Origin: an uncultured Alphaproteobacteria bacterium
Lineage (GTDB): Bacteria > Pseudomonadota > Alphaproteobacteria > 43-37 > CAWALT01
DNA: 64,000 bases
Reading direction: 5' to 3'
Assembly: GCA_963782975.1 (NCBI GenBank)
Contig: CAWALT010000002.1
Span: forward strand, 182,406-246,405
Below the pieces are notes generated by a model. It saw only the letters and a list, made by a program, of their open reading frames with translations, did not search any database and was not told where the DNA came from. Each line of letters starts with the position of its first letter. Within the stretch, counting starts at the first letter, position 1. This document shows, one piece after another, positions 46,082 to 49,398 of the stretch. Position numbers and translations under genes: made by a program.

Positions 46082-46918
46082 TTATTCCCATGCACCGGTA
46101 GGAGAAGTGGGCTGTGTACGATACCGAGGAGGTAGGGTACCGCGGCCACCTGTTTTGCTGATTGGTGGTCTTTTGTTTTTTGCTTGGATTTGTTGCCACT
46201 TGGGGCTAGCCTTCAGGTGTCTCTTTTTTGTCGAGGTCGCGGCATGAGATTCTCTGTAAGAAGAGGCATCACTAGAAAAGTCGGTCTCTCCTGACATATG
46301 GTTCTCCCAAGCATCGCTTGGTGCCCCTGAGCCATAAGTGGTGTCACTGGGAAAGTCGGTTTCCCCTGACATCCTATGCTTCCAGGCATCGCTTGGTGCT
46401 CCTGAGCCATAAGAAGGGGTGTCACTGGGAAAGTCGGTTTCCCCTGACATATGATCCTTCCAAGCATCGCTTGGTGCCCCTGAGCCATAAGGGGTGTCAC
46501 TGGGAAAGTCGGTTTCCCCTGACATATGATCCTTCCAAGCATCGCTTGGTGCCCCTGAGCCATAAGGGGTGTCACTGGGAAAGTCGGTTTCCCCTGACAT
46601 CCTATGCTTCCAGGCATCGCTTGGCGCCCCTGAGCCATAAGAAGGGGTGTCACTGGGAAAGTCGGTTTCCCCTGACATCCTATGCTTCCAGGCATCGCTC
46701 GTCTGTCTTGAGCGAGGGGATGACCTTCCTTTTTGAGTGCCGATAAATGGCTGGTCTCTTGTACCGAAAGAAGAGGGAGTTGCTCCTTTCCAAGGTGCAG
46801 GTGAGCCATAAGAAGGCGCTGATGAGCCATAGCCAATGGCTTCTGTGGTAGGGGAGAAGCTGAGAGAGGTAGCGCTTAAGATAAACGTAGCGAATGCTAT
46901 TTTAGTCATTTTCATCAT
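46082..46918 (-). CDS. secreted protein with 5.5 tandem 25/26-aa repeats (SDAWKHRMSGETDFPSDTPSYGSGAP)
   Basis: Signal peptide at the N-terminus, which fixes the frame. The other long frames across this region are repeat artefacts. No known domain. Confidence 0.6.
   Translation of the reverse strand: MMKMTKIAFATFILSATSLSFSPTTEAIGYGSSAPSYGSPAPWKGATPSSFGTRDQPFIGTQKGRSSPRSRQTSDAWKHRMSGETDFPSDTPSYGSGAPSDAWKHRMSGETDFPSDTPYGSGAPSDAWKDHMSGETDFPSDTPYGSGAPSDAWKDHMSGETDFPSDTPSYGSGAPSDAWKHRMSGETDFPSDTTYGSGAPSDAWENHMSGETDFSSDASSYRESHAATSTKKRHLKASPKWQQIQAKNKRPPISKTGGRGTLPPRYRTQPTSPTGAWE
46256..46699 (-). repeat. 75-78 bp tandem DNA repeat (~5.8 units) inside a CDS
   Basis: Direct reading shows repeated ...gtcactgggaaagtcggtttcccctgacat(cc/at)tatg(ct/at)tcc(a/ag)gcatcgcttggtgcccctgagccataag... 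blocks. Confidence 0.85.
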
Positions 46919-47401
46919 TTTATCTTCTTTCTTTTCTGTGGTCGGACTCTACCTAATTTAGTAAAAAGCGGTTAACATAAAATAATTAATATGTATAATT
47001 TTAATGTATTTGTTCTTAATGTGCGGGTTTTTATAGAGTATGCCTTTTACTAAGGCTATTAATGCGCCATTAATATATAAAGAATATTACTTCGACTGGT
47101 TGAAGGGGGAGAGAGAAAAGGCGTGGTTGCTCTTTCTAAAGCATGGCCGATAAGATTATCTTCCTGAGACATAAGGATTCCTCCCAGCAAGAGTAAAGAA
47201 AATGGGAAGAAATCATCGCAGCGGCTTCACCCTTAGCAAAGTTGAGGCAGGAGGGGACGGTCGATAGCAAAGAGTCTTAAGCGCAGCCGCGCCCTGTCCT
47301 CCCTTGTCTTCCTCGCTCGTTAACTTTGGGAACTTTTCGATCGACTGACCGCTTCTCTTCCTCAAGGCCTTGCTACTTTTAGTGCTTGAGGCCCCTCTAT
47401 C

Positions 47402-48052
47402 TCAATGCCGACGTATATACTGACTCCAGAGATACGTCCCAATAGGATAACCTACGGTATATACCGCATGGCCTACGATAAGAGAAATAGTTCCTAGTAT
47501 CACCGCTGAAGGAAGATACCAAAACTCTCTATTAATAGAGAAAAGGAGATTCTTAACGTCCTCATTATAGTGTTCAATGTTGGTTGTATTGAGGAATCCC
47601 TTCTGGATAGGCTTGTCACCAAAGAGGATCTTTTGAAGAAGGTTATAGGGTTTTCCATAAAGAGGATCCTTCGAAGATGCTTCTTTTAAATAAACCTTCG
47701 CTTTTTCGTCATCCTTTTCCACGAGCGTTCCTTCGTAATACATTTGCCCAAGGGCGGTGGCGAAATAAAGGCTATAAGGATCGTTATTTTTCGCTCTCTC
47801 CTCAAGTATGTGGATAATCTCGTTAATAATGGTTTGATTAGATTGGCTCCTTTTGGCAAAAGAAACAGCTTGGTCATATATTTGATCGCTTGATGTTAGA
47901 GACGCTTGCTTTAAGCTCCATAACTGCACCCTTTGGATCTCTTCTTCGGATGGGATCCATACTCCCTCGCCTATCCCAGCCTTTGCAGGGGTAGCCATGA
48001 GAGAGCAGAGAATTAAAAGGAAAGTGCTCAATATTCTTACTTTTCCATTCAT
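47402..48052 (-). CDS. Sel1-like repeat protein with signal peptide and C-terminal TM anchor
   Basis: The DPYSLYFATALGQMYYEGTLVEKDDEKAKVYLKEAS segment fits the Sel1 consensus (A..LG.MY..G.GV..D...A..W...AA). C-terminal hydrophobic helix. Confidence 0.55.
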   Translation of the reverse strand: MNGKVRILSTFLLILCSLMATPAKAGIGEGVWIPSEEEIQRVQLWSLKQASLTSSDQIYDQAVSFAKRSQSNQTIINEIIHILEERAKNNDPYSLYFATALGQMYYEGTLVEKDDEKAKVYLKEASSKDPLYGKPYNLLQKILFGDKPIQKGFLNTTNIEHYNEDVKNLLFSINREFWYLPSAVILGTISLIVGHAVYTVGYPIGTYLWSQYIRRH

Positions 48053-48338
48053 TTTTATGTCTCCTTACTGCTTAACATATTTTACTAATAGTCAATTCCT
48101 TTTGAATTTATATAAAGTGTGGGTGGTTGGAGTTTATATTAATTATTAAATGGCGTGTGTATAAAACCAGAGCATCATGAGAAAAATACGCCTATTAAGG
48201 GATGCCAGTGAAGAAATGCCTCAAAGTTTTAAAGAGATATTATTTGAAGGAGACATATAAGCGAAGGCACCACGTTCGTGGTGCCTTCGAAGACGCATTT
48301 ATATAATAAGCTCATATAAAAAGCGGTAAAGCAGAGGA

Positions 48339-48728
48339 TTAATAATGTGCGGGAGGAGCATTGTAATTGTTGGGTGAAGGCATGGTTTGACGTATTGTGC
48401 TCCCAACATTACCTCCTTGGCTGTTGATATATTCTATTAATTTTTTTTCAAGGTCGCTAAATTCCCCTTGGCGGCCCATCACCCATTGGTCAATTTCTTC
48501 TTTTGTAAGGGCGCGGCACATCGCGTCCATATTAAAAGATTTTCTACATTTTTTCCGGCATACAGATGATTTTTTGGGATCACGGCACACAGATTTGTCT
48601 TTACACAATTTGTTGCATTTTTCTGACGACCATAAAAAGGGGTTGCCGAAAGCGTTGGCGCTGGGGGATGAAAATAAAGAAGCGGCGAATAAGCCAAAGC
48701 TAAGTAATGCAATATTTATTTTGTTCAT
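48339..48728 (-). CDS. small secreted basic Cys-rich protein (likely start MNKINIALL...)
   Basis: Signal peptide. Mature part has CNKLCKDKSVCRDPKKSSVCRKKCRK plus more Cys. It is divergent from an ArsR-family regulator. Confidence 0.45.
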   Translation of the reverse strand: MNKINIALLSFGLFAASLFSSPSANAFGNPFLWSSEKCNKLCKDKSVCRDPKKSSVCRKKCRKSFNMDAMCRALTKEEIDQWVMGRQGEFSDLEKKLIEYINSQGGNVGSTIRQTMPSPNNYNAPPAHY

Positions 48729-48943
48729 GATGTTGTTCCTGTGATGTTTTTTATTTCTCTGTGTATAAACTTTACTCTTCATTTCATAATAAATTCTTAA
48801 CATTAAGTATAGAGGGCGAAAATAGTAAGCCTATAGATAAAATCACAGCCAAGGAAAGACCTTTACAAATGAATATATTTTCATATGATAAAGCGGAGGT
48901 CTTATACAGGTGGACCGGGTAATGAAGCCAGAGGATTAAGAAG

Positions 48944-49258
48944 GTGGCGCTTATAAGTAAAAATAAGCTTGAAAGTTTTGTCCCATCACTGGCGCATCTA
49001 ATGAAATTGCTGGGTGAACCCAACCGCCTTAAAATAGTTTTATCTTGTCTCGATTTTCCCCTCGCGGTCACGGAGATAGCCCATCGGCTAAAATTGGCCC
49101 AGTCTCTTGTGAGTCATCATTTGCGTTTGCTTCGAGCTGGCCATATTTTGCGTCCTGAGCGTCGGGGGAAACAAGTTTTTTACACAACGGCGAATAAACA
49201 TATCCGGCGTGTGATTCAAGAGATGGCGCTCTGCCTTCAAGAGTCTGTAAATAGGTAA
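48944..49258 (+). CDS. ArsR/SmtB-family transcriptional regulator
   Basis: Winged-HTH signature ..NRLKIVLSCLDFPLAVTEIAHRLKLAQSLVSHHLRLLRAGHIL..GKQVFY. Confidence 0.75.
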   Translation: MALISKNKLESFVPSLAHLMKLLGEPNRLKIVLSCLDFPLAVTEIAHRLKLAQSLVSHHLRLLRAGHILRPERRGKQVFYTTANKHIRRVIQEMALCLQESVNR

Positions 49259-49324
49259 TTGGGAAGAAAAGGAAGAGGCAGAGGAAAAAGATGATTATCA
49301 AGATGTTTGGGATTTTAGTGTAGG

Positions 49325-49398
49325 TGGCTGGGGTGGTAGGATTCGAACCCACGATCACGGGACCAAAACCCGCTGCCTTACCACTTGGCTACACCCCA
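49325..49398 (-). tRNA. tRNA-Gln (anticodon UUG)
   Basis: The reverse complement folds as a cloverleaf: acceptor UGGGGUG/CACCCCA with U1-A72, D-arm GCCAAGUGGUAAGGC, anticodon stem GCGGG/CCCGU with loop UUUUGGU (U33, anticodon UUG), T-arm GUGGG-UUCGAAU-CCUAC, discriminator G and an encoded CCA. It resembles E. coli tRNA-Gln. Confidence 0.85.

Follow-up and report, generated by a model that had tools for sequence, protein, structure and literature searches.

A probably native cluster of orphan genes for predicted exported proteins, with an ArsR-family regulator, between parB and tRNA-Gln of an uncultured alphaproteobacterium

HlyU, NolR and PagR are members of the ArsR/SmtB family of regulators that are without a sensor site and control exported virulence or symbiosis factors, and the tandem-repeat proteins (TRPs) of Ehrlichia leave the cell by type I secretion and are not known to carry a Sec signal peptide. 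Here we describe a locus with features reminiscent of both, found in a 64,000-nucleotide stretch (hereafter the window) of contig CAWALT010000002.1 from an uncultured Alphaproteobacteria bacterium, where a block of four genes lies between parB and a tRNA-Gln gene. Three of its open reading frames (ORFs) are on the minus strand and code for a tandem-repeat protein, a Sel1-like protein and a small Cys-rich protein, and one is on the plus strand and codes for an ArsR-family regulator. An earlier note on this DNA had read the block as an island integrated at the tRNA. We find it more plausible, at a probability of roughly 0.6, that the block groups a few native genes, specific to this lineage and coding for exported envelope proteins, and is not a recognisable mobile island, and we infer that these genes originated by rapid divergence or by birth in place.

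The block between parB and tRNA-Gln and the question of an island

The features of the locus, taken from the ORF list, Pfam, NCBIfam, PHROGs, ARAGORN, Rfam, Tandem Repeats Finder (TRF) and hydropathy, are as follows, with lengths of proteins in amino acids (aa).

45064-45924, plus strand: parB (ParB_N 4.2e-34, HTH_ParB 2.4e-33), last gene of the parA-parB pair and left boundary of the block
46015-46047, unstranded: hairpin with a 15-bp stem, GCTCCTCCCCTTTCT tgg AGAAAAGGGAGGAGC, an inverted repeat of 93% complementarity with a 3-nt loop
46082-46918, minus strand: 278-aa repeat-protein gene, an ORF with ATG start, a signal-like N-terminal segment and six tandem units
46269-46699, unstranded: 75/78-nt tandem array in the repeat-protein gene (TRF period 75, 5.7 copies, 90% matches, score 640)
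46919-47401, unstranded: 483-bp spacer from the Sel1-like gene stop to the repeat-gene start, with ORFs of at most 50 aa only
47402-48052, minus strand: 216-aa Sel1-like gene, an ORF coding for a signal peptide at 1-25 (...PAKA/G), a Sel1-like domain at ~31-130, a linker, a transmembrane helix at ~179-202 and a short basic tail
48053-48338, unstranded: 286-bp spacer with a stable hairpin and a promoter-like site ahead of the Sel1-like gene
48339-48728, minus strand: 129-aa Cys-rich gene, within the ORF 48339-48803, the likely true start being Met26 at 48728
48864-48889, unstranded: candidate ArsR/SmtB operator, an imperfect 12-2-12 palindrome TACAAATGAATA-TA-TTTTCATATGAT with the core TGAA-N6-TTCA at 48870-48883
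48944-49258, plus strand: arsR, coding for an ArsR/SmtB winged-helix regulator of 104 aa from a GTG start; it diverges from the Cys-rich gene and converges with tRNA-Gln
49325-49398, minus strand: tRNA-Gln (anticodon UUG, CCA encoded; ARAGORN, Rfam tRNA 63.9 bits), right boundary of the block

The coordinates that the earlier note had given for the end of parB, the 3' end of tRNA-Gln, the four genes and the two spacers are all correct by the ORF list, ARAGORN, Rfam and Pfam, and the two stretches that it had called free of ORFs, 46919-47401 and 48053-48338, contain no ORF of 60 aa or more and only short ones. It is likewise true that the 3' end of tRNA-Gln, placed at 49325 by both ARAGORN and Rfam (63.9 bits), faces the block, and the anatomy of the genes supports the view that they are of non-housekeeping character, exported or membrane-bound, and adjoin an ArsR regulator. 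The block is the junction of two housekeeping blocks, namely parA-parB on one side and tRNA-Gln, fabI, coaE and dnaQ on the other. It resembles the islands that integrate at tRNA genes by way of a tyrosine integrase, inasmuch as non-housekeeping genes for exported proteins lie directly past a tRNA 3' end and are accompanied by long non-coding spacers. It is however unlike such islands in being without an integrase domain, a repeat of the tRNA end, a compositional deviation, mobility genes, and homologues in phages, plasmids or other genomes.

No recombinase domain was found in the four block ORFs with Pfam, NCBIfam or PHROGs, the spacer ORFs of at most 50 aa not being profile-searched, and arsR adjoins the tRNA. 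The 25-nt 3' end of the tRNA, when searched for with up to 3 mismatches, finds itself only, and the best local match to the tRNA 3' end in 43000-49300, 13 of 16 positions at 46837-46852, has a score of 10 against a mean of 12.1 for shuffled sequence, so that no degenerate copy of the tRNA end, for which the note had suggested a search, scores above chance. The note's own remark that neither an integrase nor a direct repeat of the tRNA 3' end is visible is thus borne out by the Pfam, NCBIfam, PHROGs and repeat searches. The deviation in GC or codon usage that it had suggested measuring is not found either, since GC content at third codon positions (GC3) is 0.47, 0.415, 0.41 and 0.43 in the four genes and in every case within 1.1 standard deviations of the mean of 0.416 +/- 0.047 for the 58 long ORFs of the 64-kb window, the window being the only reference for composition. 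The tetranucleotide distance of 46000-49324 corresponds to z=1.26, and to z=-0.07 with rank 70/111 when the tandem array is collapsed to one unit, and the most deviant tetranucleotide usage in the window is found at 6.5-10.8 kb and not in the block. Furthermore, blastn of the whole block against 50,697 phage and 72,556 plasmid records gave no match, tblastn of the three exported proteins against the plasmids gave none, and PHROGs offered nothing better than E=2e-4. Of the picture of a tRNA-integrated island it is hence the position at the tRNA that stands, while the integrase, the attachment (att) repeat, the deviating composition and the phage or plasmid similarity do not.

Nor are the four genes a conserved core locus, which is the alternative that the note had named as arguing against an accessory origin. 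The Sel1-like protein matches only itself among 5.8 billion clustered proteins, the Cys-rich protein does the same both in that word-indexed search and in an exhaustive phmmer search of 1.84 billion representatives, the repeat protein has no homologue in the protein collection searched, and no paralogues of the block genes occur in the window. The whole lineage is isolated and without sequenced close relatives: ParB and FabI are themselves singletons at 90% identity clustering, the nearest ParB in 185,579 species genomes and among the metagenome contigs are 44-52% identical, and the block sequences recur in one sequencing run (Logan assembly of ERR11571143). None of 160 distant ParB loci has arsR, fabI, coaE, dnaQ or the three orphans near parB; several distant alphaproteobacterial loci have a leuS-like gene downstream of parB, and none has tRNA-Gln, fabI or arsR adjoining it, while in a Phycorickettsia locus tRNA-Gln is found ~8 kb upstream of parB, an arrangement that is not comparable. 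The genes of the block belong to familiar categories, of which they are new and unrelated representatives in a lineage that has been little sampled.

Similar orphan genes, each with a signal-like N-terminus, are found elsewhere in the window:

4607-5824, minus strand: 405-aa ORF, hydrophobic signal-like N-terminus, no Pfam family at E<=1e-5
8057-9718, plus strand: 553-aa ORF, signal-like N-terminus, no Pfam family
20272-20682, minus strand: 136-aa ORF, hydrophobic signal-like N-terminus, no Pfam family at E<=1e-5
23277-24029, minus strand: 250-aa ORF, hydrophobic signal-like N-terminus, no Pfam family at E<=1e-5

All four ORFs (at 4.6, 8.1, 20.3 and 23.3 kb) are singletons at 90% identity, the three minus-strand ones in a 15-billion-protein collection, and they occur singly among housekeeping genes, far from tRNA-Gln, so that orphan exported genes evidently need no island and are a general feature of this genome rather than a speciality of the tRNA-Gln locus. 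The three in a row in the block do form the largest cluster of orphan exported genes in the window. The C-terminal part of the 553-aa ORF has a very acidic repeat in two copies, ISD.EESYVE.SDEEEYME.SD, and the 6.5-10.8 kb around this ORF have the highest tetranucleotide z in the window (2.5-2.8), which makes this region a better candidate for an island or an effector than the block on composition. A signal-peptide protein similar to IalB (invasion-associated locus B; Pfam 7.5e-6) is encoded at 6207-6791 (plus strand) and gives a weak hint of a host-associated lifestyle; the effector role and the intracellular habit that the note had linked to such genes are assumptions.

The surroundings are otherwise of an ordinary kind. 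Past tRNA-Gln follow fabI (4e-91), coaE, dnaQ, secB, mlaA, an MlaC-like gene (Pfam MlaC) and valS, and these together with htpG, ftsK, lolA, a PBP1A-type gene, thyX, rho, parAB, kdtA, lpxK and sdhCD make the remaining window almost entirely housekeeping. tRNA-Gln is the sole tRNA gene of the window, and a transfer-messenger RNA (tmRNA) gene lies at 25.9 kb (25867-26230, plus strand); this tmRNA is two-piece, or permuted, and of the alphaproteobacterial kind, with the tag peptide ANSNMKLALNDNHNLAAVAA, and is followed by sspB, and the permuted form places the organism in the Alphaproteobacteria. The usual genes ahead of parA-parB in Alphaproteobacteria are mnmE-gidA-gidB; in the window (35515-45924, the pair included) their place is taken by a gene for a histidine kinase of dCache-HAMP-PAS type and one for a response-regulator/kinase hybrid, with rho and hemJ-like genes ~8 kb upstream. 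The gene order around parAB is rearranged with respect to distant relatives, and rho is found near parAB in three of the distant loci (L006, L016 and L088).

The three exported proteins and their transcription signals

The 278-aa protein extends from a signal-like segment, MMKMTKIAFATFILSATSLSFSPTTEA, through an N-terminal part rich in Ser, Gly, Pro and Tyr and six repeats of 25/26 aa to a basic C-terminal tail. It has the repeat unit SDAWKHRMSGETDFPSDTP(S)YGSGAP, a pI of 6.3 and a net charge near neutral, and it is probably intrinsically disordered. The earlier description of a signal-peptide protein made of 25/26-aa tandem repeats therefore agrees with what is found, namely six units, a hydrophobic signal-like segment and the TRF array. 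The array has higher-order periods of 153 and 228 by TRF and unit spacings of 75, 78, 75 and 75. The units differ in length by one whole codon only, and the variable columns are distributed over the three codon positions as 11/4/12, position 2 being the lowest; both the whole-codon steps and the low variation at position 2 fit a coding sequence. Such an array would be expected to expand or contract by whole units of 25/26 aa. The gene has a GC content of 0.52 with a GC3 of 0.47, the excess being driven by codon position 2 (0.63) and thus reflecting amino-acid composition. Prodigal called the same stop in an independent short-read assembly (locus L001, gene 11019-11273). The protein has no Pfam, NCBIfam or significant PHROG match, and it is absent from the public protein collection in each of three start variants tried, as are both of the overlapping ORFs in the alternative frames; the source annotation may have skipped the gene or marked it as a pseudogene.

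The short-read contigs of run ERR11571143 end inside the array (46336/46670; L001 and L082) and inside tRNA-Gln (49363-49387), and since that assembly breaks in the array the repeat copy number is that of the other assembly. Between the contigs L082 and L163 the overlap is just 25 nt, within tRNA-Gln, and the sequence of this tRNA is probably common to another locus or organism in the sample.

The 216-aa protein has two hydrophobic segments by hydropathy, at residues 5-25 and 179-202. In the description of a Sel1-like protein with a membrane anchor, the anchor is upheld by the second of these segments, whereas the Sel1 part comes down to a single sub-threshold repeat and a predicted fold. Pfam Sel1 (PF08238) gives one match, at residues 100-128 with E=1.1e-4 and 23.1 bits, under the gathering cut-off of 30.7 bits, and the NCBIfam model of MotX, itself a Sel1 protein, matches residues 82-128 at 1.6e-5. 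A single-sequence AlphaFold2 model, with no alignment behind it, has five helices at 36-128, corresponding to ~2-2.5 Sel1 repeats, and block means of the predicted local distance difference test (pLDDT) of 72-89 over 31-130. When this model was compared with the PDB by Foldseek the top nine matches were of the Sel1-like repeat (SLR) type, led by Legionella LpnE (6deh; probability 0.99, but E=0.06 and a template-modelling score of 0.32), and the other best structural matches, with weak scores, include Oxalobacter SLR proteins, SEL1L and AlgK. The protein is accordingly modelled as a predicted minimal Sel1-type domain at the periplasmic face; its C-terminal helix would anchor it in the inner membrane and leave a short helical-repeat surface toward the periplasm for protein-protein contacts.

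The Cys-rich protein is listed as the 129-aa form in the NCBI/ENA-derived protein collection, and consists of a signal peptide at 1-26 (...SANA/F), a basic region with six Cys and a helical C-terminal part. Its cysteines are spaced C-x3-C-x5-C-x8-C-x3-C-x9-C, and its mature part of 103 aa has a pI of 9.24 and all 6 Cys. It has no Pfam, NCBIfam or PHROG family, and the confidence of the AlphaFold2 model (pLDDT 55.8) is too low for a fold search. With 129 aa, a pI of 9.2, six Cys and a signal peptide it is indeed the small, basic, Cys-rich secreted protein that had been announced, and it would probably be disulfide-bonded. An 18-nt direct repeat of 89% identity, 48332-48349 and 48929-48946, was judged most likely to be due to chance.

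All three proteins would be exported through Sec-type signal peptides, to judge from their signal-like segments, and the term 'secreted' is appropriate to that extent; the final site may be the periplasm, the outer membrane or the outside. Between the convergent parB and repeat genes, the hairpin at 46015-46047 is found 91 nt past the parB stop and 35 nt past the repeat-gene stop; it has no clear U-run, and is likely to form the common end of both transcripts. In the 483-bp spacer RNA folding is no better than in shuffles (z=+0.30), and a permissive Rfam scan of 45900-49520 for hidden RNA genes gave the tRNA only. At 47059-47365 the minus strand has three short ORFs that overlap in different frames and may be the remains of a gene. 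The best promoter-like match of the region, TTAACA-16-TATAAT (11/12) at 46972-46999, is aimed at a 37-aa ORF at 47040-47153 (plus strand), which was also reported by the short-read gene caller and has no ribosome-binding site and no evidence from homologues.

The 286-bp spacer, by comparison with shuffled sequence, folds well (z=-3.74, with none of 200 shuffles as stable). It harbours a GC-rich hairpin of 12-13 bp with perfect 13-nt arms at 48262-48289, which lies 50 nt past the stop of the Cys-rich gene and is terminator-like for the minus strand, and a promoter-like site at 48106-48079 (minus strand) ahead of the Sel1-like gene, which in turn has a strong AAGGAG Shine-Dalgarno sequence 8 nt upstream. 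Taken together, the hairpins, the separate promoter-like and Shine-Dalgarno signals and the 483-bp spacer suggest three separate transcription units and not an operon, so that each of the three minus-strand genes would form its own unit, with a product that carries a Sec-type signal peptide. In the same spacer there is also an 11-nt perfect inverted repeat, 48247-48257 and 48056-48066, whose pairing can be followed over 19 nt (84% complementarity) and is present in the centroid fold. In the minus-strand RNA, UAUGUCUCCUU just past the strong hairpin can pair with AAGGAGACAUA in the ribosome-binding region of the Sel1-like gene ~180 nt downstream. One possible role of this pairing is that of an anti-Shine-Dalgarno element within a long leader; it may equally be due to chance, estimated at ~1% for such a region.

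The ArsR regulator and its candidate operator

The product of arsR is a true member of the ArsR/SmtB family, as had been claimed for this divergent gene, and it scores above the cut-offs of both Pfam HTH_5 (PF01022; 3.4e-9, 36.9 bits, cut-off 22) and NCBIfam NF033788 (68.2 bits, cut-off 55). Among solved structures its best match is CzrA of S. aureus (2.9e-11, ungapped over residues 16-93), and HlyU, NolR and PagR are significant matches as well (1.5e-9 to 1.1e-6). The CXC motif of helix alpha3 is however absent, A-V-T (AVTEIA) being found where the family has C-V-C. The alpha5 ligands of CzrA are D84, H86, H97 and H100; N84 and H86 of the protein align with the first two of these, and C97 and E100 would take the places of H97 and H100 if the ungapped alignment, reported up to residue 93, were carried further. 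All models for specific sensors score far under their cut-offs (TsoR 57 against 115, CmtR 46 against 150 and BigR 44 against 155), and the two cysteines of the protein, C35 and C97, are loosely like the thiol pair of BigR/SqrR. The 104-aa sequence, with V or M as its first residue, is not in the protein collection. On the short contig L082 (3-320, equal to window 49068-49385, minus strand) the gene caller took a 96-aa ORF that is antisense to arsR and overlaps the tRNA in preference to arsR, and this is a spurious call at a contig end.

The candidate operator fills the spacer of the predicted arsR promoter, which has a -35 element TTTACA at 48862 and a -10 element TATGAT that ends at 48889; this promoter-like site, TTTACA-16-TATGAT at 48862-48889, has 10/12 matches and encloses TGAATATATTTTCA. 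The palindrome, as read by eye, is symmetrical at 8/12 positions. Published 12-2-12 operators of the ArsR/SmtB family include AATACCTGAACA-GA-TGTTCAAGTATT (PMC8790569). An ArsR repressor would bind the palindrome within its own promoter, and autorepression by this route is the most likely function of the putative operator. The regulator might also act on the Cys-rich gene by way of the common 215-bp intergenic region, and perhaps controls that gene too. No further operator-like site with at most one mismatch was found upstream of the repeat-protein or Sel1-like genes, and the idea of ArsR control over the whole block was dropped for this reason.

Alternative explanations and comparison with described systems

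Several points weigh against a native cluster. The composition tests are weak here, as there is little codon bias (synonymous-choice score 0.061 +/- 0.030) and old insertions ameliorate. The block does adjoin the 3' end of a tRNA, which is a true integration hotspot. Presence or absence in sister genomes is the strongest test for an island, and the nearest ParB, at 44-52% identity, are too distant for it, while the parB neighbourhood is rearranged somehow in this lineage. The neighbours of the repeat-protein gene on the same contig are present in the protein collection from which that protein is missing, and the expression of the block, which is known from its sequence, is a prediction. As to the candidate operator, TGAA-N6-TTCA occurs 2 times in 64 kb, one of them in the arsR promoter, which equals the chance expectation of 1.96, so that only its position is suggestive; two random matches in 64 kb would hit the 215-bp target in ~0.7% of cases, a figure that is weak since the motif was chosen after the site had been seen. 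Some of these points would suit an ancient island at the tRNA-Gln 3' end that has lost its integrase and att repeat and has drifted to host composition, with the exported proteins and ArsR as the surviving cargo. The tRNA 3' end does face the block in the right position and orientation, the content is non-housekeeping and includes two long non-coding stretches, the short ORFs that overlap in three frames at 47059-47365 may derive from a decayed gene, and the neighbourhood of parB is unlike that of distant alphaproteobacteria. Nevertheless we consider this history unlikely, since there is no integrase domain, no tRNA repeat above chance and no phage or plasmid similarity, since GC3 and tetranucleotides are ordinary, since cargo from outside would normally have homologues somewhere and none are found for the exported proteins among billions of proteins, and since equivalent orphan genes sit away from tRNA-Gln. 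Odd genes beside a tRNA do not by themselves justify the name of island, and here every testable property but position speaks against one.

Another explanation is a metal or redox module similar to SmtB-SmtA, in which a metal or thiol stress sensed by ArsR would relieve the repression of the divergent gene, whose Cys-rich product would bind metal or buffer redox stress in the periplasm, the other two genes being unrelated neighbours. As in smtB-smtA, an ArsR/SmtB regulator is divergent from the gene of a small Cys-rich protein, here with six Cys, and a 12-2-12-like palindrome lies in the common control region; furthermore the nearest solved relative is a zinc sensor, CzrA, three of the four residues N84, H86, C97 and E100 at its ligand positions (in part from the extended alignment) could still bind metal, and C35 and C97 are loosely like the BigR/SqrR thiol pair, the BigR model giving 44 bits. 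Two of these ligand positions depend however on carrying the alignment beyond residue 93, the alpha3 CXC is absent and the alpha5 set non-canonical, every specific sensor model (TsoR, CmtR, BigR) is far under its cut-off, and the Cys-rich protein, which is without detectable relatives, is set apart from cytosolic metallothioneins by its signal peptide and by having no more than six Cys. Indeed, in contrast to SmtA it is exported and basic, with six Cys only and no metallothionein similarity, and a module of this type seems quite improbable. More improbable again is the notion that at least one of the ORFs is not a gene, especially that the 278-aa ORF is an open frame from a non-coding minisatellite whose unit length is a multiple of three by chance. 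The array does leave all three overlapping frames open (ORFs of 278, 207 and 142 aa), none of the start variants tried for the protein has an entry in the public collection, the score for its synonymous codons is low at 0.014 (0.061 +/- 0.030 being usual here), and the differences among units are 69 nonsynonymous against 37 synonymous. But only the 278-aa frame runs beyond the array on both sides, by ~70 codons upstream and by 50 downstream, and starts with ATG and a typical signal peptide, the unit length steps are whole codons with codon position 2 the least variable, Prodigal gave the same stop in an independent assembly, and the Sel1-like and Cys-rich genes have clear Shine-Dalgarno sequences, signal peptides and entries in the public gene set.

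A native cluster of lineage-specific genes is thus the explanation that we prefer. If the genes are expressed, the exported proteins of this barely sampled lineage of Alphaproteobacteria grow by three that have no known relatives, namely a disordered repeat protein, a minimal membrane-anchored Sel1 domain and a disulfide-rich small protein. Since such proteins are the usual candidates for interaction with a host or partner, they are reasonable first targets should the organism prove to be a symbiont. A bolder and speculative proposal, which we hold to be doubtful, is that these are newly born or very fast-evolving surface or secreted proteins of a deep-branching, unsampled lineage that serve interaction with a host or partner under an ArsR with a divergent sensor site, the six-Cys protein founding a new periplasmic or secreted disulfide-rich family under a 12-2-12 operator. 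The wiring of ArsR in this proposal would be like the control of host-interaction genes by HlyU, NolR and PagR.

In comparison with the Sel1-like repeat proteins Legionella LpnE, EnhC and LceB, Helicobacter Hcp and Vibrio MotX, the 216-aa protein is alike in its signal peptide and in the predicted stacking of its antiparallel helix pairs. It differs from these proteins in that its domain is very short, with ~100 residues and 2-2.5 repeats against 4-20 in them, and in that it bears a C-terminal membrane anchor, has one recognisable, sub-threshold repeat and is without an orthologue, and it also does not have the Cys pairs of the Helicobacter Hcp proteins. The 278-aa protein shares with TRP32, TRP47 and TRP120 of Ehrlichia and with the repeat proteins of Anaplasma and Wolbachia that the repeats are of ~25 residues, rich in Ser, Asp, Glu and Pro and probably disordered, and that they are lineage-specific and alphaproteobacterial. 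It has however no sequence similarity to any of these, and unlike the Ehrlichia TRPs it has a classical N-terminal Sec signal-like segment, a near-neutral charge (pI 6.3) and a basic C-terminal tail. The ArsR protein, finally, is a ~100-aa winged helix above the family cut-off like CzrA/SmtB, HlyU, NolR and PagR, but differs from the metal sensors CzrA/SmtB in the absence of the alpha3 Cys motif, in a non-canonical alpha5 set and in being no equivalog of any named sensor. As with autoregulated members of the ArsR/SmtB family, the imperfect palindrome overlaps the gene's own predicted promoter, and as with HlyU, NolR and PagR, arsR adjoins genes for exported proteins and not a metal pump.

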